In this document: in pieces, positions 2,990 through 60,226 of the stretch
How positions within the stretch are numbered: the first letter of the stretch is position 1
How the letters are laid out: every line of letters begins with the position of its first letter
Source of the DNA: an uncultured Gemmatimonadales bacterium
GTDB lineage: Bacteria > Gemmatimonadota > Gemmatimonadetes > Longimicrobiales > RSA9
Direction of reading: 5' to 3'
Assembly: GCA_963816355.1 (NCBI GenBank)
Contig: CAWFKH010000005.1
Span: forward strand, 340,074-404,073
DNA: 64,000 nucleotides
Position numbers and translations under genes: made by a program
The notes under the pieces: generated by a model
What the model was told of the DNA's origin: nothing
Databases searched by the model: none
The model's input: only the letters and a program-made list of their open reading frames with translations

Positions 2990-3180
2990 GCCTCCCCTCG
3001 CCGAAGGCGAGCTTCCCCGCCGCAGGCGGCCCCCCCGCGCGGAGCGCGGCCCCCGCCGCAGGCGGTTTCCCCGCGCGCAGCGCGGCCCCCCGCCGCAGGC
3101 GGGCTTCCCTCGCGAAGCGAGCTTCCCCGCGCCCAGCGCGGCTTCCCTCGCAACGCGAGCTTCCCTCGCGCAGCGAGCGC
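2990..3180. repeat. tandem hairpin-repeat array (GCGAGCTTCCC / CTCGCGCAGCGAG units), B-orientation member of the GGCGAG-GGAAG-CTCGCC family
   Basis: Direct reading shows repeated palindromic units between the prolyl oligopeptidase stop and the amidase start. The same family occurs at 29.9-31.2 kb and 43.7-44.3 kb. Confidence 0.7.
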
Positions 3181-5295
3181 TCACCGCAGCCGCTTCCACA
3201 GGTACGTGAAGACGAGCGCCTGTTCGCGCGCCCGTTGTGCGTTGGTGACGCCCGCGCCGTGGCCGCCCTCGGTGTTCTCGTAGAACCAGACCGGGTGGCC
3301 GAGCGCCTTCATGCGCGCGGCGAACTTGCGCGCGTGGCCGGGATGGACGCGGTCGTCGCGCGTCGTCGTATAGATGAACGGCCGCGGGTAGTCCGCGTTC
3401 GGGCTGATGTTCTGGTACGGCGAGTACTCGCTGATGTAGGCCCACTCGTCCGGCCTGTCGGGGTCGCCGTACTCGCCCATCCAGCTCGCGCCGGCGAGGA
3501 GGTGGTTGAAGCGCTTCATGTCGAGGAGCGGATTCAGGATGACGACGGCGTTCCACAGGTCCGGCCGCTCCGTCAGCATGACGCCCATCAGCAGGCCGCC
3601 GTTGCTGCCGCCCATGATCCCGAGGTGCGCGGGCGAGGTGATGCGGCGCGCGATCAGGTCCTCGGCGACGGCGATGAAGTCGTCGTAGGCGCGCTGCCGG
3701 TGCTCCTTCATCGCGGCGCGGTGCCACGTCGGCCCGAACTCGCCGCCGCCGCGGATGTTGGCGACCACGTAGACGCCGCCGCGCTCGAGCCAGTCGGCGC
3801 CGTTTGCGGCGTTGTAGTTCGGCGTCAGCGAGATCTCGAAGCCGCCGTAGCCGTAGAGCAGCGTCGGGTCGTTCCCGTCGAGGGAGATGTCCTTCCGGTG
3901 CACGATGAAGTAGGGCACCTTCGTGCCGTCCTTCGACGTCGCCTCGTGCTGCTCGGTGACGAGGCCGGCGGCGTCGAACTGGGCGGGCAGCCGGCTCACC
4001 TCGCGGACCGCGCCGTCGTCCCCGGCGAAGTAGAGCGTGGAGGGCTGGGTGAACGCGCTGTAGGTGAAGAAGAAGCGGTCGCTCGACGGCGACGTCGCGA
4101 CCACGCCGGCGCTGCCGATGCCGGGCACCGGGATCGTGTCGGCGCTCCACGTGCCGTCGTCGAAGTGGAAGCGGAGGAGCGACGGCCGCACGTTCTCGAG
4201 GCGGTCGACGAGCAGGTAGTTCTCGGTGCTGCTGACGCCGTCGATCGTGGCGCGCGGGTCCGGCTGGAGCACGACCTGGAAGTCGCGGCCGCCGGCGAGG
4301 AAGGCGTCGATGCCGGTCGCGATCAGGGCGTCGGCGGCGAACGTGTGTCCGCCGACGTCCCAGGGGGAGCGGAGCCGCAGCACGAGCTGGTCGCCGACGA
4401 GCGAGATGTCGGAATCGAGCGGCACGTCGAGCTTCACCAGCGAGTCGCCGCGCAAGACGTAGTACATCGTCTCGAAGAAGGTGGGCGAGCGGACGACGAG
4501 GCCCCACGTGCGGCCGCCGCTGCGGGTGGCGCCGACGCCGACGAGCACGTCCGTGGTGTCGCCCTCGAGCAGCGTGCGCGCGGCGGAGAGCGGCGTGCCG
4601 CGGTGCCACAGCTTCGCGATGCGCGCGTAGCCGGACGTGGTGCGGGTGCCCGGCCCGAAGTCGGTCGAGACGAGGACGTCGTCGGGCCCGAGCCAGGCGA
4701 CGCCGAGCTTCGCCTCCGGAAGGGCGAAGCCGCCGTCGACGAACGCGGCGTGCTCGACGTCGAACTCGCGCACCTGCACGGCGTCGGCGCCGCCGCGCGA
4801 GAGGCGGACGAGGCAGCGGCGGTACGCGGGCGGCAGGCAGCTCGCGCCCTTCCACGCCCAGTCGACGCCCTCCGCCGCGGCGAGCGAATCCACGTCGAGG
4901 ACGGTGGTCCAGCGCGGCGAGCCGGCCAGGTACGCGTCCCATGTGGTGCGGCGCCAGATGCCGCGCGGGTGGTCGCCGTCCTGCCAGTAGTTGAAGATCG
5001 CGTCGCCGAGGATCGACGGGAACGCGATGCGGTCGTGCGAATCGTAGATGCGCAGCGTGCGCTCGTAGATCGGCTGGTAGAGTGGGTCGGCGCCGAGGAC
5101 CGCCATCGTCGAGTCGCTCTGCGCCTTGACCCACGCCAGCGAGCGCGGCGCTTCGACGTCCTCGAGCCAGCGGAACGGGTCGGACGATTGGCGCGGCGAC
5201 GCCGTGGCGCGCCCGGTGGAGCTCGGCTGCTGCGCCGAGAGGCCGCTCGTCGCGACGATCGCCGCGATCGCGAGCAACGCGGGAAACCGCTTCAT
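3181..5295 (-). CDS. prolyl oligopeptidase family serine peptidase (S9A), secreted
   Basis: ORF 3181..5493 has an internal start MKRFPALLAIAAIVATSGLSAQQ (signal peptide) at 5295. It has a beta-propeller N-terminal half plus a catalytic domain (GGSNGGLL, ...D...H), typical of prolyl endopeptidase. Confidence 0.85.
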   Translation of the reverse strand: MKRFPALLAIAAIVATSGLSAQQPSSTGRATASPRQSSDPFRWLEDVEAPRSLAWVKAQSDSTMAVLGADPLYQPIYERTLRIYDSHDRIAFPSILGDAIFNYWQDGDHPRGIWRRTTWDAYLAGSPRWTTVLDVDSLAAAEGVDWAWKGASCLPPAYRRCLVRLSRGGADAVQVREFDVEHAAFVDGGFALPEAKLGVAWLGPDDVLVSTDFGPGTRTTSGYARIAKLWHRGTPLSAARTLLEGDTTDVLVGVGATRSGGRTWGLVVRSPTFFETMYYVLRGDSLVKLDVPLDSDISLVGDQLVLRLRSPWDVGGHTFAADALIATGIDAFLAGGRDFQVVLQPDPRATIDGVSSTENYLLVDRLENVRPSLLRFHFDDGTWSADTIPVPGIGSAGVVATSPSSDRFFFTYSAFTQPSTLYFAGDDGAVREVSRLPAQFDAAGLVTEQHEATSKDGTKVPYFIVHRKDISLDGNDPTLLYGYGGFEISLTPNYNAANGADWLERGGVYVVANIRGGGEFGPTWHRAAMKEHRQRAYDDFIAVAEDLIARRITSPAHLGIMGGSNGGLLMGVMLTERPDLWNAVVILNPLLDMKRFNHLLAGASWMGEYGDPDRPDEWAYISEYSPYQNISPNADYPRPFIYTTTRDDRVHPGHARKFAARMKALGHPVWFYENTEGGHGAGVTNAQRAREQALVFTYLWKRLR

Positions 5296-7180: not shown

Positions 7181-8113
7181 ATGCGCGCCGATGTGGAGCA
7201 GCGGGTTCGCGACGTCGCCGCAAGCCAGCACGGGGTGGTCACCCGCAACCAGCTCGTTCGGGCGGGCCTTTCCTCGGCCGCCATCGGTCGCAAGGTGATG
7301 CGCGGGCAGCTGCAGACGCGCCATCGGGGCGTGTATCAGCTGGGGCCGCTCGCGCTTCCCGGCGCCTCCCACATGGCTGCCGTGCTCGCCGGCGGGCCCG
7401 CCGCAACCCTGAGCCACCTTTCCGCAGCGAGCCTCTCCGGGTTGCGCCCGCGGCCGGACGTCCCGGGGCCGATCCACGTCAGCGTTCCGGGAGCGGGCCG
7501 GAGTCGCAGGCCCGGCATACGCTTCCACCGCGTCGCCCTCGCCGACGACGAGCGGACGATCGTCGACGGCATTCCCATCACGGCACCGGGACGCACGCTC
7601 GTGGACATCGCCGGCATGCTGGGCCGGCGCGAGATCGAGCACGCCGTCGCCTGCGCCGAACGGGAACGCCTCATCGATCACGAGCAGCTCGCCGCGCTTC
7701 CGGAGCGCTACCGCAGCCGTCCCGGCATCGGCCTGTTGCGAGAAGTGACGCAGCGGCTCGCGGAGCCGGCGTTCACGCGCTCCGAGGCGGAGAACCGATG
7801 TCTCGAGATGCTGGACGCCGCCCGGATCCCCCGGCCGCACTCCAACGTGCCGATCGGACCCTACGAGCTGGACCACTTCTGGCCCGTGGAGGGGATCGCC
7901 ATCGAGATCGACGGCCGCGCATACCATTCCGCTCGCGGCCGCTTCGAGGGCGATCGCCGCAAGGATGCATGGCTCCGCGCCCGCGGCATCGAGGTGATCC
8001 GCCTCACCTGGAGGCAGATCACGCGCGAAGCGATGCCCACCGCCGTCCAGATCGGTCAGATCCTCGCTCTCGCCCGGGCCCGCAAAGCCGCGACCCCGCG
8101 GGAGGCGTCGTAG
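7181..8113 (+). CDS. DUF559 endonuclease-like domain protein with AbiEi-type N-terminal domain
   Basis: ORF 7109..8113 has an N-terminal wHTH-like AbiEi_4 region (HGVVTRNQLVRAGLS...). Its C-terminus carries the DUF559/Vsr-like fold motifs (FTRSEAENRCLEML...IEIDGRAYH...DRRKDAWLRARGIEVIRL). The internal ATG is at 7181. Confidence 0.75.
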   Translation: MRADVEQRVRDVAASQHGVVTRNQLVRAGLSSAAIGRKVMRGQLQTRHRGVYQLGPLALPGASHMAAVLAGGPAATLSHLSAASLSGLRPRPDVPGPIHVSVPGAGRSRRPGIRFHRVALADDERTIVDGIPITAPGRTLVDIAGMLGRREIEHAVACAERERLIDHEQLAALPERYRSRPGIGLLREVTQRLAEPAFTRSEAENRCLEMLDAARIPRPHSNVPIGPYELDHFWPVEGIAIEIDGRAYHSARGRFEGDRRKDAWLRARGIEVIRLTWRQITREAMPTAVQIGQILALARARKAATPREAS

Positions 8114-8265
8114 GCGACGTCGTCGCAACGCATTCGCAGGCGACGTCGTCGCAACGCATCGCAGGCGACGTCGTCGCAACGCATCGCAGGCGACGTCGTC
8201 GCAACGCATCGCAGGCGACGTCGTCGCAACGCATCGCAGGCGACGTCGTCGCAACGCCGCATCGG
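8112..8265. repeat. 25-bp tandem repeat x6 (AGGCGACGTCGTCGCAACGCATCGC) with palindromic core CGACGTCG
   Basis: Six near-identical units read directly, starting at the stop codon of the DUF559 gene. Confidence 0.8.
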
Positions 8266-8404
8266 CGCCTGGGGCGCAGGGGCCCAGGGCGTTCAACGCA
8301 AGCGTACCGGCCGGACGAACCCAACCGTTCTCGCGACTCACGGCGAACGGCTGGGATTCGGCCGCGTCGAGGACGGCCCGTGCGAGAAGAATCTCGTAAT
8401 CGGC

Positions 8405-8432
8405 GCCGGTCGGATGCTCGCCATCCGGATTT
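8405..8432 (+). terminator. candidate intrinsic terminator (CGGATG-ctcgc-CATCCG stem-loop followed by GATTTTT)
   Basis: A GC-rich 6-7 bp stem plus a T5 run, which is rare in a 70% GC sequence. It lies inside a low-GC island with no ORF. Confidence 0.35.
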
Positions 8433-8677
8433 TTCTCGGAATCCGGGAAGAATCTCGTAACGAACACCCTGGTCCTGGATCGCAAACGAGATATTGCTCG
8501 ATTTCCGAGACAAAACCGGATAGCGATCCCCGAGACGCCATCCATTACGAGAAATTGCTCACTTCTCGGAGCACGAACCGGCCGAGACGTGCTCGACCTC
8601 GACCGCGAGTCCGGGAAACCCTCGCCCACGGAGGACCACCGCAATGTGTAGCCCGGGCAGAGTGGACGCGCATGCTC

Positions 8678-8808
8678 GGGCGGACGCAAGCGGGGCGGAC
8701 GCATGCTCGGGCGGACGCAAGCCGGGCGGACGCAAGCGGGGCGGACGCAAGCCGGGCGGACGCAAGCGGGGCGGACGCAAGCCGGGCGGACGCAAGCGGG
8801 GCGGACGC
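8678..8808. repeat. 15-bp tandem repeat x~8.5 (GGGCGGACGCAAGCS)
   Basis: Read directly. It is flanked by two copies of GCATGCTCGGGCGGACGCAAG. Confidence 0.75.
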
Positions 8809-8849
8809 CCCGATTGGAGCGCCCGCCCCGCAATCGCTCACCTGCGTTC

Positions 8850-9015
8850 GGCGACGATCGCGCGAGACGGCTCAGCGCACCGCCTGCCCCTCAGCGCATC
8901 GCCCGCAACCTGGGCGACGATCGCGCGAGACGGCTCAGCGCACCGCCTGCCCCTCAGCGCATCGCCCGCAACCTCGGCGACGACGGCGCGAGACGGCTCA
9001 GCGCACCGTCCGCAC
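8850..9015. repeat. 63-bp tandem repeat x~2.6
   Basis: Unit GGCGACGATCGCGCGAGACGGCTCAGCGCACCGCCTGCCCCTCAGCGCATCGCCCGCAACCT is repeated twice, followed by a degenerate partial copy. That partial copy also encodes the last codons of the minus-strand lipoprotein gene. Confidence 0.7.
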
Positions 9016-28159: not shown

Positions 28160-29524
28160 CTACAGCTTCACGACGTTCTCCGCCTCCGGTCCCTTGCGCG
28201 CGTCGACCCGCGTGAACTCGACGCGGTCGCCCTCGTCCAGCGTGCGGAAGCCCTCGCCGACGATCGCCGTGTAGTGGACGAAGCAATCGTCACCGCCATC
28301 CTCGGGGGTGACGAAGCCGAACCCCTTCGAGTCGCTGAACCACTTGACCGTTCCGCCGATCCGCGGCCCGGCGGCGGCGGCGGTCGCGGCGTCCGACGCG
28401 GTCTGCCGCACGCGCGGCCCTTCCCCCGCGTCGGATCCCTTCGACGACGCCGGCGCCGATTCCGCTTCGCCGCCCGAGCGCCCGCTATCCGAACGCCCGC
28501 CGCCCGAACGCCCGCCGCCCGAACGCCCGCCGCCCGAACGCCGGCCGCCACCGCGCCCGCCACCGCCCGTGCCATCGCCGCCACCGCGCCCGCCACGGGC
28601 GTCGCCATCGCCACCGTCGGTGCCGCCGCCGCGCCCGCCGCGGGCGCTGCCGGCGCCGGCCATCTCGGGCGACGACGTCGCCTCGATCCACTCCGGGCGC
28701 TGCGCGGCCCGCCGCGCCAGCTCGCCCACCGCGTCGCTCCGGGCGGAGGCGATGATCACCGTCTGGCGCGACGCCGGCAGCGCCGCCAGGACGGGATCGA
28801 GATCGCGGGCGGAGGAGCCGAGGCGATCCGCGTCGTCGACGACGAGCACCTCGACCTCGGTCAGGTCGAGGTCGCCCGAGCCGAGGAGCTCGGCGGCGCG
28901 CGTCGGCGTGGTCACCAGCAGATCGAAGCCCGCGCGCAGGTCGCGGAGCTGACGCTCCGGCGGCACCCCCGCGTGCAGGAGGCCGATCCACAGGTGCGTC
29001 TCGCCGGCGAGGGCCTCCGCTTCAGCGCCCACGGCGGCGACGGCGGCGTCGCCCGGGCAGAGGATCAGCGTGCGCAGCCCCTCCCTCCCGACCTGCCGCT
29101 CCACGACCGGCAGCATGTAGGCGCCGGTCTTGCCGGCGCCGGCGGGCGCGATGACCACGACGTCGTGGCCAGCGCCGATCTGCGGCGTGGCCGCCGACTG
29201 CACCGGCGTCGGCCGCGACCACCCGCGCGCCTCGAGCGCCTCACGCAGCGGCGCTGACGACGTCAGCTCCTCGAAGCTGCGGCGCTGCGGTACGCGCGGC
29301 GCTTCCGACTCCGGCGGCGTCGCGGTCCGCAGCTTCGGCGCCGCCGCCCCGGCCGCGCCGCGCCGCCGCCGGAGGAGCGCATACAGCACGGCCGCGCCCA
29401 CGAAGGCGACGACGACGAGCGTCCAGATCAGCGGCTGCCAGCCGAAACTATCCAAGGGCTCCCTTCCGCTCCCTTCCCAACGGACCGCATGCTCGTAACG
29501 ATCCGCACCTCCGCGAGGCATCAT
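28160..29524 (-). CDS. membrane-anchored DEAD-box helicase domain-1-like / RGG-rich / cold-shock domain protein
   Basis: It has an N-terminal TM helix ([23 protein letters not shown]), then the Q motif, Walker A (AGAGKTGAY), TPTR, VVDDAD and SAR, with no helicase domain 2. A (GGRGG)n linker follows, then a C-terminal CspA-like domain ([31 protein letters not shown]). A TTG at about 29455, preceded by AAGGGAG, is an alternative start. Confidence 0.7.
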
Positions 29525-29677: not shown

Positions 29678-29866
29678 TCAGTGGCGCAGCAGGAACCAGG
29701 CACCCACCGGCACCGCGAGCGCGGCCGCGGCGAGACCGGCCGTCTGCGTCCGGCTCAGGTTGTGGTACGCCGTATAGGCGACCGCCCCCTTCACGGGATG
29801 CTTCAACATGAACGTCGCCTTCGGCGCCTTCGTGTATCCGATCAAGGTCCCGATCTTCCTCAACAT
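29678..29866 (-). CDS. hypothetical small membrane protein (62 aa)
   Basis: It sits in a lower-GC stretch, with GGAGG 2-3 nt upstream of the ATG. The sequence MLRKIGTLIGYTKAPKATFMLKHPVKGAVAYTAYHNLSRTQTAGLAAAALAVPVGAWFLLRH has a C-terminal TM segment. Confidence 0.3.
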   Translation of the reverse strand: MLRKIGTLIGYTKAPKATFMLKHPVKGAVAYTAYHNLSRTQTAGLAAAALAVPVGAWFLLRH

Positions 29867-29929
29867 GCGCTATCCTCCCGGTCAACGGACACCAGATTGT
29901 GATGGGATGCAATGCAAGGGACGCGCCGG

Positions 29930-30375
29930 GGGCTCGCCTTCGGCGAGGGAAGCTCGCCTGGCGGCGAAGGAAGCTCGCCTGCGGCGAGGGAAGCCCGCCT
30001 GCGGCGGGGGAAGCCGCCTCCGGCGGGGGCCGGCTGCGCCGGGGAGGCTCGCCTGACGGCGAGGGAAGCTCGCCTCCGGCGGGGGCCGGCTGCGCCGGGG
30101 AGGCTCGCCTGACGGCGAGGGAAGCTCGCCTGCGGCGAGGGCCGGCTGCGCCGGGGAAGCCCGCCTGACGGCGGGGGAAGCCGCCTGCGGCGGGGGCCGG
30201 CTGCGCCGGGGAAGCCCGCCTGGCGGCGGGGGAAGCCCGCCTCCGGCGGGGGCCGGCTGCGCCGGGGAGGCTCGCCTGACGGCGAGGGAAGCCGCCTCCG
30301 GCGGGGGCCGGCTGCGCCGGGGAGGCTCGCCTGACGGCGAGGGAAGCTCGCCTCCGGCGGGGGGCCGCCTGCGGG
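29930..30375. repeat. tandem hairpin-repeat array, A orientation (units GGCGAGGGAAGCTCGCC and the 32-nt nested variant, organised in ~57-bp higher-order repeats x6-7)
   Basis: Read directly. Each unit is a 6-bp stem with a GGAAG loop, and the longer unit nests a CCGGC..GCCGG hairpin. Confidence 0.8.
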
Positions 30376-30384
30376 TCTTTCAGG

Positions 30385-30816
30385 TCAGGGGCGATCCGAG
30401 GAGGCCCGACGTTGCATGGCGCGGCAGTGGTGGACGAGCACTATGCCGAGACGGCGCGCGGCGGCCCGGCACGGGGCGAGCGACTCGGCGGGCTCGATGC
30501 CTTTGATCGCGAGCAGCGCCAATGCGTTCTCCGCTTCGGAGACGGAGCGGCGGGCGATTCGGTAGATGCGTGCCTTTTCCGCCGGCCGATACTCACCGAT
30601 CGCTTCGCCCACGTTCAGGACCGCCGAATCGACCGCCCGATCGAGCTGGTCGCTCAACGCGGGCCACGATCGCCTCACCCGATTGACGATCGGCAACGCC
30701 GCCGCCGCGAATCCCTCGGCCAGCCGCCGCACGGCAAGCCCCTCATACTCAGCGCCCAAACCCTCCTCCTCTCCGTCCGTCATCACAACATCCACTCCCT
30801 GCCCGGCCAGATCCAT
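30385..30816 (-). CDS. four-helix-bundle protein (TIGR02436 / 23S rRNA intervening-sequence protein / Avd-like family)
   Basis: The C-terminal 143 aa of ORF 30385..32376 align to the family consensus (WPALSDQLDRAVDSAVLNVGEAIGEY...KARIYRIARRSVSEAENALALLAIKGI versus FPKEE.YGLTSQIRRSAISIPSNIAEGYGR...EFVHFLYIALGSATELDTQLIIACELGYI). An alternative ATG lies at 30783. Confidence 0.75.
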   Translation of the reverse strand: MDLAGQGVDVVMTDGEEEGLGAEYEGLAVRRLAEGFAAAALPIVNRVRRSWPALSDQLDRAVDSAVLNVGEAIGEYRPAEKARIYRIARRSVSEAENALALLAIKGIEPAESLAPCRAAARRLGIVLVHHCRAMQRRASSDRP

Positions 30817-30837
30817 GTCCCCGTGAGCCCTAACCAA

Positions 30838-31195
30838 GGCGGTTTGCCCCGGCGCAGCCGGCCCCTCGCCGCCAGGCGAGCTTCCCCGGCGCAGCCGGCC
30901 CCTCGCCGAAGGCGAGCTCCCCCGGCGCAGCCGGCCCCTCGCCGAAGGCGAGCTCCCCCTCGCGAAGCGAGCTTCCCTCGCCGAAGGCGAGCTCCCCCGG
31001 CGCAGCCGGCCCCTCGCCGAAGGCGAGCTCCCCCTCGCGAAGCGAGCTTCCCTCGCCGAAGGCGAGCTCCCCCGGCGCAGCCGGCCCCTCGCCGAAGGCG
31101 AGCTTCCCTCGCGAAGCGAGCTTCCCTCGCCGCCAGGCGAGCTTCCCCGGCGCAGCCGGCTTCCCTCGCCGCAGGCGAGCGCTCCGCGCTTGCGC
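30838..31195. repeat. tandem hairpin-repeat array, B orientation (reverse complement of the 29930-30375 array)
   Basis: Units AGGCGAGCTTCCCTCGCC and CCGGCGCAGCCGGCCCCTCGCC are the reverse complements of the A-array units. Confidence 0.8.
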
Positions 31196-31260
31196 CACCC
31201 GCCCGCCTCCCTCATCATCGCCACCCCGGGCCGGACCGACCCACGACGGAGCAGCCCATC

Positions 31261-32400
31261 ATGCGCGTGATCCTCCTCGGCGCGGGCCGCGTCGGCGCTG
31301 CCATCGCCCGCGACCTGGCGGACGACGACGCCTTCGACCTGAGCGTCGCCGACGCCGACGCGAGCGCGCTCGAGCCGATCGCGCGCGCCGGCGTGCGCGT
31401 GGTCGCGGCCGATCTCTCCCGGCCCGGCGCCATCGCCGACGTGACGGCCGGCCACGACCTGGTCGTCTGCGCCGTGCCGGGCCCGATCGGTTTCGAGACG
31501 GTGCGGAGCGCGCTCGAGGCCGGCCACGACGTCGTCGACATCTCGTTCTTCGAGGAGGACGCGTTCGAGCTCGACGCGCTCGCGCGCGAGCGGGGCTGCA
31601 CGGCGATCGTCGACTGCGGCGTCGCGCCCGGCTTCAGCAACCTCGTGCTCGGGCACCTCGAGGCCACGCTCGAGACGACGGCGCGTTTCCGCTGCGTCGT
31701 GGGCGGGCTGCCGCGCGTGCGCCGCTGGCCGTACGAGTACCGGGCGCCGTTCTCGCCGATCGACGTGCTGGCCGAGTACACGCGGCCGGCCCGGCTGCGC
31801 CGCGGCGGGCGCGAGGTGGTGTTGCCGGCGCTGTCCGAGGTCGAGCTCGTGGACTTCGACGGCGTCGGCACGCTGGAGGCGTTCAACACGGACGGCCTGC
31901 GCACCCTGCTCCGCACCGCGCGCACGCCGGAGCTGGCGGAGAAGACGCTCCGCTACCCCGGCCACGCCGACCGCATGCGGATGCTGCGCGACAGCGGCTT
32001 TTTCGACGCCGCGGCGATCGACGTCGCGGGCACGCCGGTGCGGCCGCTCGACGTGACGGCGCGGCTGCTCTTCGAGGCGTGGCGGTTCGAGCCGGGCGAG
32101 GCGGACCTGACCGTGATGCGCATCGAGGTGGATGGGACGGAGGCCGGCGAGCCGGTGCGCCACACCTGGGAGCTGCTCGATCGGTACGACGACGCCACCG
32201 CCACGCTGTCGATGGCGCGCACGACCGGCTACACCTGCACCGCCGTCGTCCGCCTGCTGGAGCGCGGGCTCTACCGGCGGCCCGGCGTCTCGCCGCCCGA
32301 ATACGTCGGTGCGCAGCCCGGCTGCTTCGAGTTCGTCGTCGAGCGGCTGGCGGAACGTGGCGTCGCCTGGCGCCACACGCGGACGAGTCCGCCGGCCTGA
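31261..32400 (+). CDS. saccharopine dehydrogenase NADP-binding domain protein
   Basis: It has the Rossmann motif MRVILLGAGRVGAAIARDLADDD. The ATG at 31261 is in frame in ORF 30412..32400. Confidence 0.85.
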   Translation: MRVILLGAGRVGAAIARDLADDDAFDLSVADADASALEPIARAGVRVVAADLSRPGAIADVTAGHDLVVCAVPGPIGFETVRSALEAGHDVVDISFFEEDAFELDALARERGCTAIVDCGVAPGFSNLVLGHLEATLETTARFRCVVGGLPRVRRWPYEYRAPFSPIDVLAEYTRPARLRRGGREVVLPALSEVELVDFDGVGTLEAFNTDGLRTLLRTARTPELAEKTLRYPGHADRMRMLRDSGFFDAAAIDVAGTPVRPLDVTARLLFEAWRFEPGEADLTVMRIEVDGTEAGEPVRHTWELLDRYDDATATLSMARTTGYTCTAVVRLLERGLYRRPGVSPPEYVGAQPGCFEFVVERLAERGVAWRHTRTSPPA

Positions 32401-32600: not shown

Positions 32601-34061
32601 ATGAAGATTTCGGCCGGACGCGTGCTCGCGCCCGTGCTGCTCGCCGGCTGTGTCCATGGCCCGCCTTCCGTCGCCGGCGTGGCGGGCGCGCCCGCCACGC
32701 CGCACGACGTGTGGACGCCGCCCGCGGAGGCCGTCGAACCGTCGCTCGTGCCGATGCCGGCGGCGGTGCCGGCGCCGCTTCCGGCGGACGTCGCCGCGCG
32801 CGTGCGGCAGTTGCGCCTCGCCGACGTGGTCGACCTGGCGCTGCGCGGCAACCCGGCGACGCGCGCTTCGTGGGCGCAGGCGATCGCGGCCGCGGACGCG
32901 TACGGCGTGCAGCGCGGGCGCTGGTTTCCCACGTTCGACCTGAACGTGGCGGCGACGCAGACGCAGTCGCTCTCGACCGCGACGCGTTTCGGCGGCCGCC
33001 GCCGCCAGCTCAACCCCGGCGTCAGCCTCTCGTACGTGCTCTTCGACCTGGGCGGCCGCGGCGGCGCCGTGGACGCGGCGAAGCAGGCCGCCGTCGCCGC
33101 CGGCCTCACGCACAACAGCGTCCTCCAGACGGTCGTGCTGCAGGCGGAGACGGCGTACTTCGACTACATGTCGACACGCGCGCTGCTCGACGCGCAGCAG
33201 GCGTCCGTGCGGGAGGCGCAGGCGAACCTCGAGTCGGCGCAGCATCGCCACGACGTCGGCCTCGCCACGATCGCGGACGTGCTGCAGGCGAAGACCGCCG
33301 CGTCGCAGGCGCAGCTCGCGCTCGAGACCGTGAGCGGTCAGCTGCGCGCGGCGCAGGGCGCGCTCGCCGTCGCGATGGGCTTGCCGGCGAACGTGAGCTA
33401 CGACGTGGTGCCGCCCGCGGCGCCCGTCGAGGTGCGCGACGTCGCGGAGAGCGTCGATTCGCTGATCGCGGCCGCGGTGAGCAGCCGTCCGGACCTTGCG
33501 GCGGCGGCGGCGCAGGCGCGGCAGGCGGCGGCGGCGGTGCGCCGGACGCGCGGCGCGTCGCTGCCCACGCTCTCCTTCTCCGGCAACGCCGGCGAGGTCT
33601 ACAGCGACCTCCCCGAGTTCAGCGGCAACAACTACAACCTCTCGCTCACGGTCCAGGTCCCGGTGTTCAGCGGCTTCTCGCTGCGCTACGCGACGCTCGC
33701 CGCGCGGGCCGAGGCGGACGCGGCCCGGGCGCGCGCGGAGGGCGTGCGGCAGCAGGTCGTCAACCAGGTCTTCACTTCGTACTACGCGCTGCAGACCGCG
33801 ACGCAGCGGGCGCACACGAGCGACGACCTGCTCGCCAGCGCCACGCAGTCTGAGGAGGTGGCCACCGGCCGCTACCGCGAAGGCGTCGGAACCATCCTCG
33901 ACCTGCTCACCGCCCAGCGGGCGCTCGCCGACGCGCGCGCGCAGCAGGTACAGGCCCGCTGGGACTGGTACGCCGCCCTCGCCCGTCTCGCCTACGACGT
34001 CGGCGTCCTCGGGCCGGCCGGCGAAACGCCCATCCCCCTCTCGCCCCCCACGCACGAATGA
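32601..34061 (+). CDS. efflux transporter outer membrane factor lipoprotein (NodT/OprM family)
   Basis: It has lipobox VLLAGC and two TolC-like repeats. The ATG at 32601 is preceded by GAGG. Confidence 0.85.
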   Translation: MKISAGRVLAPVLLAGCVHGPPSVAGVAGAPATPHDVWTPPAEAVEPSLVPMPAAVPAPLPADVAARVRQLRLADVVDLALRGNPATRASWAQAIAAADAYGVQRGRWFPTFDLNVAATQTQSLSTATRFGGRRRQLNPGVSLSYVLFDLGGRGGAVDAAKQAAVAAGLTHNSVLQTVVLQAETAYFDYMSTRALLDAQQASVREAQANLESAQHRHDVGLATIADVLQAKTAASQAQLALETVSGQLRAAQGALAVAMGLPANVSYDVVPPAAPVEVRDVAESVDSLIAAAVSSRPDLAAAAAQARQAAAAVRRTRGASLPTLSFSGNAGEVYSDLPEFSGNNYNLSLTVQVPVFSGFSLRYATLAARAEADAARARAEGVRQQVVNQVFTSYYALQTATQRAHTSDDLLASATQSEEVATGRYREGVGTILDLLTAQRALADARAQQVQARWDWYAALARLAYDVGVLGPAGETPIPLSPPTHE

Positions 34062-35368
34062 GCATGCGCAGCGATGGATCTCTTGCGGGCACCGCGGGCG
34101 CCGGCGCCACGGGCGACACGGGCGTGGGCACTGCGGGCGCCACGGGCGCCGCGGGCGTAGGCCCTGCGGGCGCCGCGGGCGTAGGCCCTGCGGGCGCCGC
34201 GGGTGTTGGCCCTGCGGGCGCCGCGCGCGTTGGCGCGCGCGTCTTTCGCGCCGTTGGGGCGGTGCTCCTCGTCGGGCCGCTGGCGGGCGCCTGCGGCCGG
34301 CAGCCGCAGCGCGGCGCGGCGCCGGTCCCCGTCACGGTCGCGGTCGCGGAACGGCGCGCCGCGCCGTTCACGATCACCGCCAACGGCGTCGTGGAGCCGC
34401 TGCAGACGGTGGCGGTGGAGCCGCAGGTCAACGGGATCGTCACGAGCGTCGATTTCGCCGAGGGCGACGATGTGCGCGCGGGGCAGCCGCTGTTCCACAT
34501 CGATGCGCGCCCGTACGAGGCCGCGCTGCAGCAGGCGGAGGCGACGCTCGCCAGGGACGCGGCGCAGGCGGAGAACTCGCGTCGCGACGCCGAGCGCTAC
34601 CGCACGCTGGTGAAGCAGGACTACGTCACGCAGGCGCAGGCGGACCAGGCGGCCGCCACGGCGGTGGCGCAGGCGGCCGCCGTCAAGGCGGACAGCGCCG
34701 CGGTGCGGACGGCGCGGCTGAACCTCGCCTACACGGTGATCCGCGCGCCGATCGCCGGGCGCACCGGCTCGCTGCTCGTGCACGAGGGCAACGTGGCCAG
34801 GGCGACTGGCTCGCCGCTCGTCGTGATCAACCAGATCCGGCCGATCCTGGTGCGCTTCCCCGTCGCCGCGCGCGACTTCCCGGAGGTACAGCGGCACGCG
34901 GCAGGCCGCGCGCTGCCGGTCTCCGTCGCCGTCGCCGAAGGCGACCAGGGCGACCCGATCACCGGCGAGCTCAGCTTCGTCGACAACGCCGTCGACCCGC
35001 AGACCGGCACGGTGCTGCTCAAGGCGCGCTTCGCCAACGAGCGGAGCCTGCTGTGGCCGGGAGAATACGTCACGGCGAGCCTGCAGCTCTACGTCGAGCA
35101 GGGCGCCATCGTGGTGCCGGCGTCGGCGATCATCGTGACGCAGACCGGCAGCTCGGTGTTCGTCGTGGACTCGGCGGAGGTCGCGCACCAGCGCGACATC
35201 ACGCCCGGCCGCCCGCTCGCCGACCAGGTGATCGTCGCGGCTGGCGTGCAGGCGGGCGAGCGCGTGGTCACCGACGGACAGTCGCGCCTCGCCGACGGGG
35301 ACCGCGTCGTCATCCGCACCGTGCCCGCCGCCGCGCCGGGCGCGACGGAGGAAGGCGCGGCGCGATGA
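34058..35368 (+). CDS. efflux RND transporter periplasmic adaptor subunit (MFP)
   Basis: It has the motifs AcrA-like barrel-sandwich/lipoyl (GIVTSVDFAEGDDVRAGQPLFHID...VIRAPIAGRTG). The N-terminus is a Gly/Ala-rich repeat encoded by the 24-bp DNA tandem repeat, before a lipobox (LAGAC). ATGA overlaps with the OMF gene upstream and the RND gene downstream. Confidence 0.8.
   Translation: MSMRSDGSLAGTAGAGATGDTGVGTAGATGAAGVGPAGAAGVGPAGAAGVGPAGAARVGARVFRAVGAVLLVGPLAGACGRQPQRGAAPVPVTVAVAERRAAPFTITANGVVEPLQTVAVEPQVNGIVTSVDFAEGDDVRAGQPLFHIDARPYEAALQQAEATLARDAAQAENSRRDAERYRTLVKQDYVTQAQADQAAATAVAQAAAVKADSAAVRTARLNLAYTVIRAPIAGRTGSLLVHEGNVARATGSPLVVINQIRPILVRFPVAARDFPEVQRHAAGRALPVSVAVAEGDQGDPITGELSFVDNAVDPQTGTVLLKARFANERSLLWPGEYVTASLQLYVEQGAIVVPASAIIVTQTGSSVFVVDSAEVAHQRDITPGRPLADQVIVAAGVQAGERVVTDGQSRLADGDRVVIRTVPAAAPGATEEGAAR
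34100..34235. repeat. 24-bp tandem repeat x~4 (GGGCGCCGCGGGCGTAGGCCCTGC) inside the 5' end of the MFP gene
   Basis: Read directly. In frame it encodes AGVGPAGAAGVGPAGAAGVGPAG. Confidence 0.6.
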
Positions 35369-38300
35369 GCATCGCGGGCCTCTTCATCCGCAGGCCGGTG
35401 ATGACGACGCTCGTCATGCTGGCCATCCTCTTCTTCGGCATCATGTCGTACCGCCGCCTGCCGGTGAGCGACCTGCCGAACGTCGACTATCCGACGATCT
35501 CCGTCTCGGCATCGCTCCCGGGTGCGAGCCCGGAGACGATGGCGGCCGCCGTCGCGACGCCGCTCGAGAAGCAGTTCTCGACGATCGCGGGCATCGACAA
35601 CATGACGTCGAGCAGCGGCGTCGGCTCGACCAACATCACGCTGCAGTTCTCGCTCGACCGCGACATCGACGCCGCCGCGCAGGACGTCCAGGCCGCGATC
35701 TCGAAAACGCTGCGCCAGCTGCCGCGCGACATCGTCCCGCCCTCGTACCAGAAGGTGAATCCGGCCGACGCGCCGATCATGTACATGGCGCTGACCACGG
35801 ACGTCATGCCGCTCTCGCAGCTCGACGAGTACGCCGAGACGGTGCTCGCGCAGCGCATCTCGACCGTCGCCGGCGTCGCCTCCGTAAACGTGTTCGGCTC
35901 CGCGAAGTACGCCGTCCGCGTCGAGCTCGACCCCGCCGCGCTCGCGGACCGCGGCATCGGCATCGACGAGGTCGCCGGCGGCATCGCGAGCGGCAACGTG
36001 AACCTGCCTTCCGGCGTGCTGTGGGGGCCCGAACGCGCCTACACCGTGCAGGCGAGCGGGCAGCTCCACGACGCCGCCGCGTTCCGCGACCTCGTCGTCG
36101 CCTACCGCAACGGCGCCCCCGTCCATCTGCGCGACGTCGGCCAGATCAAGGACGACGTGCAGGACGACAAGTCGGCGAGCTGGTACGACGGCAGCCGCTC
36201 GATCGTGCTCGCGGTGCAGCGGCAGCCGGGCACCAACACCGTCGCCGTCGCGCGCGCGGTGCGCTCGATGGTCGACCGGCTGCAGGCGCAGATCCCGCCG
36301 GGCGTCCACATCCACAACCTGTACGACCGCTCGGAGTCGATCGGCGAGTCGGTGCGCGACGTCAAGTTCACGCTGCTCCTGACCCTCGCCCTCGTGGTGA
36401 TGGTCATCTTCCTCTTCCTGCGCAACGTCTCGGCGACGGTCATCCCGAGCCTCGCGCTGCCGATGTCGCTCGTCGGCACGTTCGCCGTGATGTACCTGCT
36501 CGGCTACAGCCTCGACAACCTCTCGCTCATGGCGCTCACGCTCGCCGTCGGCTTCGTCGTCGACGACGCGATCGTCATGCTCGAGAACGTCGTGCGCCAC
36601 ATGGAGATGGGGAAGCCGCCGATGCAGGCGGCGCTCGACGGCGCCCGCGAGATCGGCTTCACCATCGTCTCGATGACGCTGTCGCTCACCGCCGTCTTCA
36701 TCCCGATCCTCTTCATGGGCGGCATCATCGGCCGCCTCTTCCACGAGTTCGCCGTCACGATCGGCGCGGCGATCCTCGTCTCCGGATTCGTCTCGCTCAC
36801 GCTCACGCCGATGCTCGGCAGCCGCTTCCTGAAGCGGCAGAGCACGGAGCGCCACGGCCGCTTCTACCAGGCGACGGAGCGCGCCTACGAGCGTCTGCTC
36901 GGCTTCTACGAGCGCACGCTCGCCGGCGTGATGCGGCACCGGCGCGCGACGATGGCCTTCTCCGCCGCCATCCTCGTCGCGACCGTCGTGCTCTTCCTCC
37001 TCGTTCCCAAGGGATTCCTGCCCAGCGAGGACTCCGGCCGCATCTCCGTCACCACCGAGTTCGCCCAGGGCACGTCCTTCGACGCGATGCTGCGACACCA
37101 GCAGGAGGTCGCCGCCGTCGTGGCGAAGGACCCCAACGTCGCGGACTTCATGTCCTCGATCGGAGGCGGCCGCGGCACCGGCAACCAGGGCCGCATGTTC
37201 CTCCACCTCAGGGCGCGCGCCGAGCGCGTCTCCGCCGACGAGGTGATCCGCGAGCTGACGCCCAAGCTGAACGCGTTCCCCGGCGTGCGCGTCTTCATGC
37301 AGAACCCGCCGCCGATCCGCATCGGCGGCCGCACCTCCAAGTCGCTCTACCAGTTCACGCTGCAGGGCGCCGACATCGCCACGCTCTACGCCGAGTCGGA
37401 CCGCCTGCTGGACCGGATGAAGCGGATCCCGCAGATCGTCGAGGTGACGAGCGACCTGCAGATCGGCAACCCGCAGGTGGACGTGCAGATCGACCGCGAG
37501 CGCGCCGCCTCCCTCGGCGTCACCGCGCAGCAGGTCGAGAGCGCGCTCTACGACGCCTACGGCGCGCGCCAGGTCTCCACCATCTACACGCCGAACAACG
37601 AATACTGGGTCGTGATGGGCCTGCAGCCGCAGTACCAGCAGGACCTCGCCGCACTCAACCTGCTCTACATCCGCTCGCAGAACGGCGCGCTCGTACCGCT
37701 CAACTCCGTCGCCTCGCTGAGCAAAAGCCTGGGACCGCTCACCGTCAACCACTCCGGGCAGCTCCCTTCCGTCACGCTGTCGTTCGACGTCGCGCCCGGC
37801 GCTTCGCTCAGCGACGCGACTGCGGCGATCCAGCGCGCGGCGCGCGAGGTTCTGCCGTCGGCGATCACGACCGCCTTCTCCGGCACCGCGCAGGCGTACC
37901 AGGACACGCAGCAGGGGCTGCTCTTCCTGCTCCTCATGGCGATCTTCGTCATCTACGTCGTGCTCGGCATCCTCTACGAGAGCTTCATCCACCCGCTCAC
38001 GATCCTTTCCGGGCTGCCGTTCGCCGCCTTCGGTGCGCTCCTCACGCTCCTGCTCACGCGCACCGAGCTCGACGTCTACGCCTTCGTCGGCGTCATCATG
38101 CTCGTCGGGCTCGTCAAGAAGAACGCGATCATGATGATCGACTTCGCGCTCGACGCGGAGCGCAACGAGGGGAAGCCCGCGCGCGAGGCGATCCTGCAGG
38201 CGTGCAGCATCCGGTTCCGCCCGATCATGATGACGACGATGGCGGCGCTCATGGCCGCGCTCCCGATCGCGCTCGGCACCGGCGCCGGCGCCGAGGCGCG

Positions 38301-38499
38301 CCGCCCGCTCGGCATCGCCGTCGTCGGCGGGCTCGCCTTCTCGCAGGTGATCACGCTCTACGTGACGCCCGTCGTCTACACCTACCTCGACGCGTTCCAG
38401 CACCGCGCCGGCCGCCGCTTCACGCGGCGCCGCGGCGCCGCCGGCGAGGAGCGGGAGCGGCCGCACTGGCAGCCGCAGCCGGTCGCCGCCGGCGAGTAG
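35365..38499 (+). CDS. efflux RND transporter permease subunit (AcrB/HAE1 family)
   Basis: A 1044-aa, 12-TM protein with a typical N-terminus MSIAGLFIRRPVMTTLVMLAILFFG. It occupies the downstream part of ORF 33496..38499. Confidence 0.92.
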   Translation: MSIAGLFIRRPVMTTLVMLAILFFGIMSYRRLPVSDLPNVDYPTISVSASLPGASPETMAAAVATPLEKQFSTIAGIDNMTSSSGVGSTNITLQFSLDRDIDAAAQDVQAAISKTLRQLPRDIVPPSYQKVNPADAPIMYMALTTDVMPLSQLDEYAETVLAQRISTVAGVASVNVFGSAKYAVRVELDPAALADRGIGIDEVAGGIASGNVNLPSGVLWGPERAYTVQASGQLHDAAAFRDLVVAYRNGAPVHLRDVGQIKDDVQDDKSASWYDGSRSIVLAVQRQPGTNTVAVARAVRSMVDRLQAQIPPGVHIHNLYDRSESIGESVRDVKFTLLLTLALVVMVIFLFLRNVSATVIPSLALPMSLVGTFAVMYLLGYSLDNLSLMALTLAVGFVVDDAIVMLENVVRHMEMGKPPMQAALDGAREIGFTIVSMTLSLTAVFIPILFMGGIIGRLFHEFAVTIGAAILVSGFVSLTLTPMLGSRFLKRQSTERHGRFYQATERAYERLLGFYERTLAGVMRHRRATMAFSAAILVATVVLFLLVPKGFLPSEDSGRISVTTEFAQGTSFDAMLRHQQEVAAVVAKDPNVADFMSSIGGGRGTGNQGRMFLHLRARAERVSADEVIRELTPKLNAFPGVRVFMQNPPPIRIGGRTSKSLYQFTLQGADIATLYAESDRLLDRMKRIPQIVEVTSDLQIGNPQVDVQIDRERAASLGVTAQQVESALYDAYGARQVSTIYTPNNEYWVVMGLQPQYQQDLAALNLLYIRSQNGALVPLNSVASLSKSLGPLTVNHSGQLPSVTLSFDVAPGASLSDATAAIQRAAREVLPSAITTAFSGTAQAYQDTQQGLLFLLLMAIFVIYVVLGILYESFIHPLTILSGLPFAAFGALLTLLLTRTELDVYAFVGVIMLVGLVKKNAIMMIDFALDAERNEGKPAREAILQACSIRFRPIMMTTMAALMAALPIALGTGAGAEARRPLGIAVVGGLAFSQVITLYVTPVVYTYLDAFQHRAGRRFTRRRGAAGEERERPHWQPQPVAAGE

Positions 38500-43669: not shown

Positions 43670-44280
43670 AAGGCGCTCGCCTGGCGGCGAGGGAAGCTCG
43701 CCTGGCGGCGAGGGAAGCTCGCCTGGCGGCGAGGGAAGCTCGCCTGCGGCGAGGGGAGCTCGCCTGCGGCGAGGGCCTCGCCTGGCGGCGTGGGAAGCTC
43801 GCCTGCGGCGAGGGCCCGGGCTCGCGCCGGGGGAAGCTCGCCTGCGGCGAGGGTCGCGCGTCGGCCGGCCTCCCTCGCGCAGCGAGCTTCCCCCGCGCAG
43901 CGGGCCCCGGCGCAGCCGGCCTCCCTCGCGCAGCGAGCTTCCCCCGCGCAGCGGGCCCCGGCGAAGCCGGCCTCCCTCGCGCAGCGAGCTTCCCCCGCGC
44001 AGCGGGCCCCGGCGCAGCCGGCCTCCCTCGCGCAGCGAGCTTCCCCCGCGCAGCGGGCCCCCGGCGAAGCCGGCCTCCCTCGCGCAGCGAGCTTCCCCCG
44101 CGCAGCGGGCCCCGGCGCAGCCGGCCTCCCTCGCGCAGCGAGCTTCCCTCGCGCAGCGGGCTTCCCCTGCAGAGCAGGTCCCCGGCGAAGCCGGCTTCCC
44201 TCGCGCAGCGAGCTTCCCCGGCGGAGCCGGCTTCCCTCGCGCAGCAAGCTTCCCTCGCGCAAGCGAGCGCCACGCGCAGC
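43670..44280. repeat. composite palindromic hairpin-repeat array: A-orientation units (43670-43860) abutting B-orientation ~57-bp units x5-6 (43870-44280)
   Basis: The left half is GGCGAGGGAAGCTCGCCTG units. The right half is CCTCCCTCGCGCAGCGAGCTTCCCCCGCGCAGCGGGCCCCGGCGCAGCCGG units, which is the same family as 29930-31195 but with no gene between the halves. Confidence 0.8.
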
Positions 44281-44315
44281 GAGCTCTCAACGTTCTCCCC
44301 AACCAGGGCGTCATT

Positions 44316-55667: not shown

Positions 55668-55851
55668 GGGGGTGGGGAGGCGCGAGGACTTGGGGCGGCG
55701 GGGACGGGACGGTACAGGGCGCGGCGTACCCCGGACCGGTCTGGGGTCTGCGGAGGGGGTCTGGGGAGGGTCTGGGGTACGAGGGTCTGCGGGGGGTGTG
55801 GGGTACGGGGGTCTGCGGGGGTCTGGGGTACGGGGGTCTGGGGGGGCTGCC
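55668..55851. repeat. G-rich tandem repeat block (GGGTCTGGGG / TACGGGGGTCTGCGGGGG units), left copy of an inverted-repeat pair
   Basis: Read directly. Its reverse complement recurs at 60055-60226, including the identical 27-mer CGGTCTGGGGTCTGCGGAGGGGGTCTG. Confidence 0.75.
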
Positions 55852-60054: not shown

Positions 60055-60226
60055 TCCCCCGCCGTTCCTCCGTCCCCCAGACCCCCGTCCCCCAGACCCC
60101 CCCAGACCCCCCCCGTACCCCAGACCCCCCGCAGACCCCCTCCGCAGACCCCAGACCGCTCCCCTCCCACCCGTCCCTGTCCCCACCCCTGCCTCTCCAC
60201 CACCAACCCCCCTAAATTCCCCCCCC
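60055..60226. repeat. C-rich (minus-strand G-rich) tandem repeat block, right copy of the inverted-repeat pair
   Basis: It is the reverse complement of the 55668-55851 block. It lies in the divergent arfB/dinB intergenic region. Confidence 0.75.

Follow-up and report, generated by a model that had tools for sequence, protein, structure and literature searches.

A four-helix-bundle gene between complementary arrays of tandem hairpin repeats: a candidate intervening-sequence-type cassette outside ribosomal RNA

The stretch of DNA analysed here, which we call the window, is 64 kb of contig CAWFKH010000005.1 from an uncultured Gemmatimonadales bacterium, and has a GC content of 73%. Within it, a minus-strand gene encoding a 143-residue four-helix-bundle (4HB) protein (30385..30816) lies between two arrays of tandem repeats, and it is this unit of 1.3 kb, gene and arrays together, that concerns us. 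The left array is 451 bp long (29923..30373, plus strand, delimited by Tandem Repeats Finder (TRF), module parsing and hairpin phase statistics); its linkers are G-rich on the plus strand, and when the 4HB gene is read in its own sense it forms the 3' arm. The right array measures 334 bp (30847..31180, minus strand, from TRF and its inversion relative to the left array), has linkers that are C-rich on the plus strand, and forms the 5' arm. Direct reading of the sequence gives a trailer of 11 nt (30374..30384, minus strand) that separates the stop codon from the left array, and a leader of 30 nt (30817..30846, minus strand) that separates the right array from the start codon. A preliminary description of the locus had put the arrays at about 450 and 360 bp and the two gaps at 10 and about 20 bp; only the length of the left array survives from these figures.

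That description also assigned the gene to family TIGR02436, which profile matches bear out (E 6.4e-9, 36 bits, cut-off 24), together with a match to PF05635, the S23p or 23S rRNA intervening sequence (IVS) protein family (E 6.9e-9, 36.3 bits, cut-off 33.8). The exact protein is held in a public protein collection, derived from the source contig, and a word-based homologue search returned only the protein itself; exact look-ups of this protein and of the saccharopine dehydrogenase of the window yielded no recorded contig. At E < 1e-3 we found 571 representative relatives, and the closest among 1.8 billion representatives are only ∼40–48% identical. The invariant residues of the subfamily are kept in the window protein, and the subfamily profile matches the S23p structure PDB 2gsc (XCC0516 of Xanthomonas campestris) with E 3.3e-20. 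An AlphaFold2 model of the monomer consists of four helices (mean predicted local distance difference test, pLDDT, 91.2) and has as its best structural matches PDB 2rld and 2gsc, followed by Avd of diversity-generating retroelements (DGRs). Both of these PDB entries contain five chains, whereas the window protein was modelled as a monomer; an S23p homopentamer has been described (PMC4990558), and PF05635 and Avd have been treated as homologous (PMC10053308). The gene is foreign-looking in composition, with a GC content at third codon positions (GC3) of 0.80 compared with 0.95 ± 0.025 (minimum 0.873) for window genes of at least 100 codons, and this atypical codon usage suggests horizontal acquisition.

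The two arrays are built of common modules in opposite orientation, as had been claimed, and their best complementary stretches measure 55 nt (89% complementarity) and 45 nt (96%). For the 17-mer GGCGAGGGAAGCTCGCC, allowing up to two mismatches, the window contains 20 occurrences where 0.17 would be expected. The hairpin unit had been given as GGCGAG-GGAAG-CTCGCC, but this is the wrong phase: at least five of six stem pairs are present in 76 of 79 candidates when the loop is of the TGC type, and in only 18 of 74 when GGAAG is taken as the loop. The unit is better read as CTCGCC-loop-GGCGAG, where the loop is TGC, TTC, TCC, TGAC or TGGC. Compensated variation in the stems (CTCGCC/GGCGAG, CCCGCC/GGCGGG, CCGGC/GCCGG and CTCGC/GCGAG) supports these as the loops, with GGGAAG or GGGG as the linkers. 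At a higher level of organisation, TRF finds a period of 56 in the left array (8.1 copies, 89% matches; also 111 and 167), and periods of 36 and 75 in the right array (84–93% matches). We considered whether the arrays might be coding sequence, and rejected this, given that 3 does not divide the left array's period of 56; long open reading frames (ORFs) do run through the arrays, but these are a usual artefact of 73% GC.

According to folding models, the arms enclosing the 4HB ORF could pair into a long stem. When the sense transcript of the unit is modelled, 298 of the 520 base pairs of the minimum free energy structure join the 5' arm to the 3' arm, and cofolding of the two arms yields –760 kcal/mol compared with –506 kcal/mol when they are folded apart. 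The outermost ends of the unit are 87% complementary over 31 nt, so that terminal inverted repeats are present.

Comparison with relatives bears on how the unit came to lie here. On its left is a small conserved gene of 62 codons (29678..29866, minus strand), which is downstream of the 4HB gene and co-oriented with it, has no Pfam match, and encodes a protein found exactly in a public collection; beyond this is a gene for a DEAD-box helicase with a C-terminal cold-shock domain (28160..29524, minus strand; Pfam DEAD and CSD). On its right is a gene of the saccharopine dehydrogenase family (31261..32400, plus strand; Pfam Sacchrp_dh_NADP and Sacchrp_dh_C), whose homologues at 60–69% identity are annotated as Longimicrobiales or Gemmatimonadota. 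Two relatives, L003 and L005, carry the helicase gene, an adjoining 62- or 63-residue counterpart of the small gene at the equivalent position, and the dehydrogenase gene (69% and 64% identical to that of the window, respectively), all in the order and orientation of the window. The distance between the small gene and the dehydrogenase gene is 165 bp in L003 and 147 bp in L005, with neither arrays nor a 4HB gene in the spacer, compared with 1394 bp in the window. The non-repeat sequence outside the arrays, 56 nt on the left (29867..29922) and 80 nt on the right (31181..31260), approximates the 147–165-nt spacer of the relatives, and we take these two pieces, from their lengths, to be remnants of the ancestral divergent intergenic region. 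Given the short spacers of L003 and L005, and flanks that together come to about the ancestral spacer length, arrays and gene appear to be an insertion and, measured against these relatives, behave as a single inserted unit, as the preliminary description had proposed. The junctions of the unit can be placed only to within a few nucleotides.

Domain scans of the ∼55 genes of the 64-kb window reveal no reverse transcriptase, transposase or integrase, and in particular no Y1 (RAYT-type, IS200/IS605-like) transposase gene, nor is there an rRNA (Rfam) or tRNA anywhere within it; an absence first stated for the neighbourhood of the gene thus holds, with tRNA added, across the whole window. Scanned with Rfam and PADLOC and for tRNAs, promoters and terminators, the locus itself gave nothing informative.

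The repeat family of the arms is present at two further places in the window, both of which lack a 4HB gene. The first is a lone array (2995..3178, minus strand) between minus-strand genes for an amidase and a prolyl oligopeptidase. The second is a mirrored pair, consisting of a left half with the G-linker orientation (43675..43853, plus strand; TRF, 17-mer matches and module parsing) and, ∼10 nt away, an inverted right half (43864..44285, minus strand; TRF and module parsing), situated between the divergent starts of a small gene (43636, minus strand) and a gene for an extracytoplasmic function (ECF) sigma factor (44316, plus strand). Cofolding of this gene-less pair gives 139–145 inter-arm pairs. 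All three loci of the family are intergenic and consist of tandem short palindromic units, and the existence of the two gene-less ones shows that arrays of this family are not confined to the 4HB cassette. A search of GTDB species genomes and JGI metagenomes with the repeat dimer as pattern returned single matches attributable to chance, mostly within genes, and no arrays; with isolated matches only, the repeat family appears to be lineage-specific. We also looked for a rule relating the strand of an array to its neighbouring genes, and abandoned it, since no one rule fits all seven arrays of the window: the array at 2995–3178 breaks it, as do the arrays around the 4HB gene when viewed in the sense of that gene.

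To what extent is such a layout peculiar to the window? We examined 16 independent loci of the protein family, comprising the window, six further loci of the same subfamily, eight from cyanobacterial plasmids and one 23S rRNA IVS, and in all 15 of the others the ORF again lies between complementary arms of short tandem repeats. In the six subfamily loci (L013, L015, L017, L018, L019 and L020) the arms are 27–55 nt long and 88–100% complementary, with hexamers or 14-mers as their units: L013 has (CCCTTG)n and (CAAGGG)n; L015, L017 and L020 have (CCCGTG)n and (CACGGG)n; L019 has an arm of 55 nt with hexamer periodicity; and L018 has a 14-mer array whose inverted copy is cut by the end of a short contig. 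Thus the sequence of the arms varies by locus, while their complementarity is retained. In the hexamer loci the C-rich arm is 5' and the G-rich arm 3', on both strands, whereas this order is reversed in the window, in L018 and in the cyanobacterial loci; with so inconsistent an order, we rejected a telomere-like origin of the arms.

A flank-complementarity score was used to compare seven 4HB loci with 98 other genes within the same sequences. All seven 4HB loci score between 19 and 36, compared with a control median of 10, and only two of the 98 controls reach 19 (Fisher p = 1.6e-9), one of these being a transposase-like gene and the other a gene that borrows the 4HB arm of its neighbour. A further trace of the arms is visible in the proteins, where terminal dipeptide repeats (GT, GS, GK, GR and others, mostly C-terminal) are present in 80 of 268 subfamily members but in only 1 of 121 controls; we read these as gene calls that run into translated hexamer arrays at the edge of the gene. 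The atypical composition of the gene also recurs, given that, of five further subfamily loci tested, four have a 4HB gene whose GC3 lies far below that of its neighbours, with values of 0.58–0.80 for the 4HB genes of the window, L013, L015, L017 and L019 compared with 0.93–0.98 for their neighbours. In L013 and L017 the upstream arm occupies almost the entire gap to the preceding co-oriented gene, which leaves little room for a promoter, so that read-through from the host gene probably accounts for transcription of the ORF and its two arms.

Two observations on these loci should be recorded. L013 contains a gene-less hairpin, (GGGCAA)5-loop-(CCTTGC)5, at 5120–5195, between convergent genes and 1.7 kb from the 4HB cassette; its arms run G then C, while the cassette with the same hexamer runs C then G, and with the order opposite we rejected it as a simple empty site. 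Separately, a segment of 1250 bp that is 99.7% identical among L020 (1741–2990), L021 (1742–2990) and L022 (470–1718) bears a 4HB cassette with (CGTGCC)5/(GGCACG)5 arms, occurs in two different contexts, and in L021 and L022 lies directly downstream of DDE transposase genes.

The nine loci beyond the subfamily were obtained by tblastn against plasmids; tblastn of one further query, P0371, against plasmids gave no match, and neither did two protein-guided scans of viral contigs. One of the nine, on plasmid AZO_p2 of Azospirillum lipoferum 4B (L023, 1420–1907), is a true 23S rRNA IVS: an S23p-type ORF, without an entry in the gene table of the plasmid collection, lies ∼1150 nt into an Rfam match to the large-subunit rRNA, with arms of 36 nt made of GGACRGA units. 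The other eight are cyanobacterial 4HB genes with inverted heptamer arms, the weakest of which measure 17–29 nt (L028, L029 and L030), and they lie within cas6-cas4, cas10-cmr3, nrdB-nrdA and other gene pairs. The host operons at L024, L026, L028 and L025 include CRISPR-cas operons (cas6-cas4 in Anabaena sp. 90 and Pseudanabaena, cas10-cmr3 in Picosynechococcus) and the ribonucleotide reductase subunit genes of Nostoc.

The Anabaena plasmid pANA02 allows a comparison within one replicon. Its 4HB gene has the top flank-complementarity score, 26 against a median of 8, and its AGGTGAC arrays (30 and 273 nt) are found only at the two flanks of that gene. The same plasmid carries a DGR Avd gene, the sole Avd that we tested, which has no complementary arms and scores 8, the same as background. 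The 4HB model of the window shares the Avd fold, but the window differs from a DGR in having no reverse transcriptase in its 64 kb; template and variable repeats were not searched for.

Our preferred explanation for this set of results, to which we would attach a probability of roughly 0.55, is that the 1.3-kb unit is a free-standing selfish cassette of the IVS type, in which a stem processed by RNase III would insulate the ORF from the host transcript. A horizontally acquired S23p/4HB ORF would sit as the "loop" between two complementary arms, in a cassette that has apparently entered the short intergenic region where the 62-codon gene and the saccharopine dehydrogenase gene diverge. The arms are unusually long in this lineage (334 and 451 bp), and consist of a lineage-specific tandem hairpin repeat that exists without the gene elsewhere in the genome. 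ORF and both arms would be transcribed together, in the direction of the downstream 62-codon gene and with the ancestral promoter region as the probable start, and the arms would pair in the transcript to give a long imperfect duplex, as in the 23S rRNA IVSs. A cut of this stem by an RNase III-type enzyme would free the ORF RNA from the host transcript, or insulate it, and we propose that this is what makes the insertion tolerated. Tandem repeats would suit such arms, since a slippage by one unit preserves complementarity and the arms would still pair.

The likeness to the ORF-bearing 23S rRNA IVSs of Coxiella, Leptospira, Xanthomonas, Brucella and Azospirillum (L023) lies in the S23p/PF05635 protein, in the placement of the ORF within complementary arms, in the short tandem repeats of those arms (GACAGAT in Coxiella, PMC4990558; GGACRGA in L023), and in a sporadic distribution and foreign composition of the kind seen in horizontally acquired selfish elements. 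In Coxiella the S23p ORF lies inside a stem cut by RNase III, beside a variable number of tandem heptamers (PMC4990558). The window unit differs in lying between two protein-coding genes, with no rRNA in the window; in having arms about ten times longer, made of hairpin modules instead of heptamers; and in an arm repeat that also occurs without the gene elsewhere in the genome, with RNase III processing here presumed. The protein family, and the ORF-in-a-stem design of rRNA IVSs including the tandem heptamers of Coxiella (PMC4990558), are already known, the latter since the 1990s, so that the preliminary description went too far in calling the arrangement undescribed. What our literature search did not find is a description of S23p/4HB genes outside rRNA that are systematically enclosed by complementary tandem-repeat arms. 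The link drawn in that description to IVS elements was apt, in view of L023 and of the ORF-within-arms layout at every other family locus, and the recurrence of this layout at 15 other loci suggests that IVS-type elements also exist outside ribosomal RNA.

Several points weigh against our explanation. The repeat family is present without a 4HB gene at two sites in the window, hence the arms may be generic host repeats, and the gene-less pair at 43.7 kb is oriented relative to its flanking genes just as the 4HB pair is. The higher-order periods of the two arms differ (56 against 36 and 75), so one arm is no simple mirror copy of the other. As transcription proceeds, local hairpins would be the first to form and would compete with the long-range stem. 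Co-transcription with the host is not universal, since in L025 and L030, both cyanobacterial, the 4HB gene runs antisense to the operon around it. Finally, with no close relative of the exact gene or arrays found, the mobility of this copy is deduced only from synteny, at 64–69% protein identity.

Of the competing explanations, the one that fares best, though we consider it improbable, is that the unit is a mobile element at the level of DNA. [quoted passage not shown] Block insertion relative to the relatives, the foreign GC3 and the complementarity of the outermost 31 nt are all consistent with this, and so is the finding that the filled pair and the empty pair at 43.7 kb share a repeat family and a G-to-C order of arms; the occurrence of the identical 4HB cassette, within the 1250-bp segment, in two different contexts next to DDE transposases also speaks for it. 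However, MITEs and other transposons with terminal inverted repeats would be expected to leave a target-site duplication, and none is visible at the junctions of the window, L017 or L020. The 64 kb contain no transposase, integrase or Y1 gene, arm length and arm unit vary freely among loci, and the gene-less pair of L013 is reversed relative to its cassette and so cannot be a simple empty site. The term "MITE-like", as first applied to this locus, is therefore one that we do not retain.

Slightly less probable still, in our estimation, is that the association of gene and arrays is a coincidence, in which ordinary lineage-specific intergenic repeats, often present as inverted pairs, happened to receive an unrelated, acquired 4HB gene, or else later filled the two new spacers on either side of it. 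The model for such repeats would be the REP sequences (repetitive extragenic palindromes) and their bacterial interspersed mosaic elements (BIMEs), or the heptamer arrays of Xanthomonas. Like REP/BIME sequences and REPIN-RAYT systems (REP doublets with their REP-associated tyrosine transposases), the window units are short GC-rich palindromes that are tandem, intergenic and lineage-specific; they differ from REP/BIME sequences in having purine-rich linkers and higher-order repeats of 36–75 nt. In RAYT systems, too, a gene is flanked by inverted REPs, but the gene enclosed in the window is a four-helix bundle and not a Y1 transposase, and there is no RAYT gene in the window. With the heptamer arrays (GGGAATC in Xanthomonas, GGGGAYT in Nostoc) the window shares abundant intergenic tandem arrays with one G-rich strand, although the window units are hairpins. 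The Xanthomonas arrays often occur as two in convergent orientation, capable of forming a stem-loop, and for the 70–75 such GGGAATC pairs no link to a gene family was described, S23 or four-helix proteins being unmentioned in that paper (PMC4692102).

In favour of coincidence, then, are these Xanthomonas pairs, the lone and paired gene-less arrays of the window, the latter matching the 4HB pair in its orientation to flanking genes, the differing periods of the two arms, and two gene-less mirrored pairs of other units in L003. Those pairs are 13–14-nt tandem arrays (L003 1–244 and 11131–11315), for example (GGCGAGGCGCGCAC)n facing (CAGCGCCTGCCGT)n, with a unit that resembles the 14-mer arrays flanking the 4HB gene in L018. 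Against coincidence stands the presence of complementary tandem-repeat arms at 16 of 16 independent family loci, and in the scored set at 7 of 7 compared with 2 of 98 controls, and the 4HB gene is the one place on pANA02 where the arm repeat occurs. The same accident would have to recur in Gemmatimonadota, in metagenome-assembled genomes of Myxococcota type, in Cyanobacteria and in an alphaproteobacterial rRNA gene, and even this small sample already points to inverted arrays enclosing 4HB genes at a frequency far above what array density would predict. The preliminary description had held that it would be mistaken if the arrays were ordinary REP-like elements, not enriched around 4HB genes, at a site invariant among relatives. 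The arrays do occur without a 4HB gene, but the relatives differ at this site, and 4HB genes are strongly associated with arms.

The weakest contender, that the repeats are iterons, putative binding sites at which the pentameric 4HB protein regulates itself or assembles a nucleoprotein complex, with complementarity a by-product of inverted sites, would accommodate arm units that change between loci alongside the protein sequence, short arms of ∼4–6 units beside homopentameric S23p and Avd (five chains in 2gsc and 2rld; PMC4990558) and the Avd-type folds that best match our model, but we think it very unlikely, because arms that vary in length between 17 and 450 nt, and in unit between a hexamer and a hairpin module of 56 nt, are a hard fit for one binding geometry, the arms of rRNA IVSs are a demonstrated substrate of RNase III, and the 4HB protein is possibly not even made in Coxiella (PMC4990558).

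Other repeats in the window and its relatives are recorded here for completeness. Between the saccharopine dehydrogenase and LemA genes, the window has an RND efflux operon (32622–38499) consisting of an outer-membrane factor, a membrane-fusion protein and a gene of 1044 codons taken to be the RND pump; the matching site in L003 (11131–11399) is just a 268-bp spacer that holds a mirrored array pair. The helicase gene contains 15-nt tandem repeats (28468–28612) that encode a Gly/Arg/Ser-rich linker (GGRSGGGRS...) between its helicase and cold-shock domains. A different repeat family, (GGGGTCTG...)n and its complement (CCCCAGACC...)n, is present in opposite orientation at 55743–55846 and 60070–60204, 4.2 kb apart, with five genes in between (TauE, LTXXQ, PAP2, amino-acid permease and RF-1 domain). 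Lastly, an 884-bp intergenic region (8108–9008) following an AbiEi/DUF559-type gene (7193–8113) holds tandem arrays of a 25-mer (6 copies), a 15-mer (8.7 copies) and a 63-mer (2.6 copies), as well as a stretch of lower GC with repeated GAATCTCGTAA motifs.

Ever since the early 1990s it has been asked what 23S rRNA IVSs and the S23p ORFs within them do and where they come from, and PF05635 is a very large family that has, to our knowledge, no assigned role outside DGRs. With its 334- and 451-bp arms of hairpin modules that are also found without the gene, the window copy is an extreme example of the design described here. A broader conjecture, which we advance only tentatively and regard as doubtful, is that S23p/4HB ORFs with complementary tandem-repeat arms form a widespread and as yet unrecognised autonomous class of selfish elements, "free-living intervening sequences", for which 23S rRNA genes would be only the best-tolerated sites. 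The 4HB protein would recognise, maintain or spread the arms, and gene-less mirrored arrays (window 43675–44285, those of L003 and L013, and possibly the heptamer pairs of Xanthomonas and Cyanobacteria) would be non-autonomous derivatives. If the design is general, the IVSs would be one form of a broader element that enters intergenic regions and operons, including CRISPR-cas and nrd. The inverted tandem arrays, puzzling and lineage-specific, that are known from several phyla would then be linked to one gene family, and the design would explain the dipeptide-repeat tails on many gene calls annotated as "four helix bundle protein".

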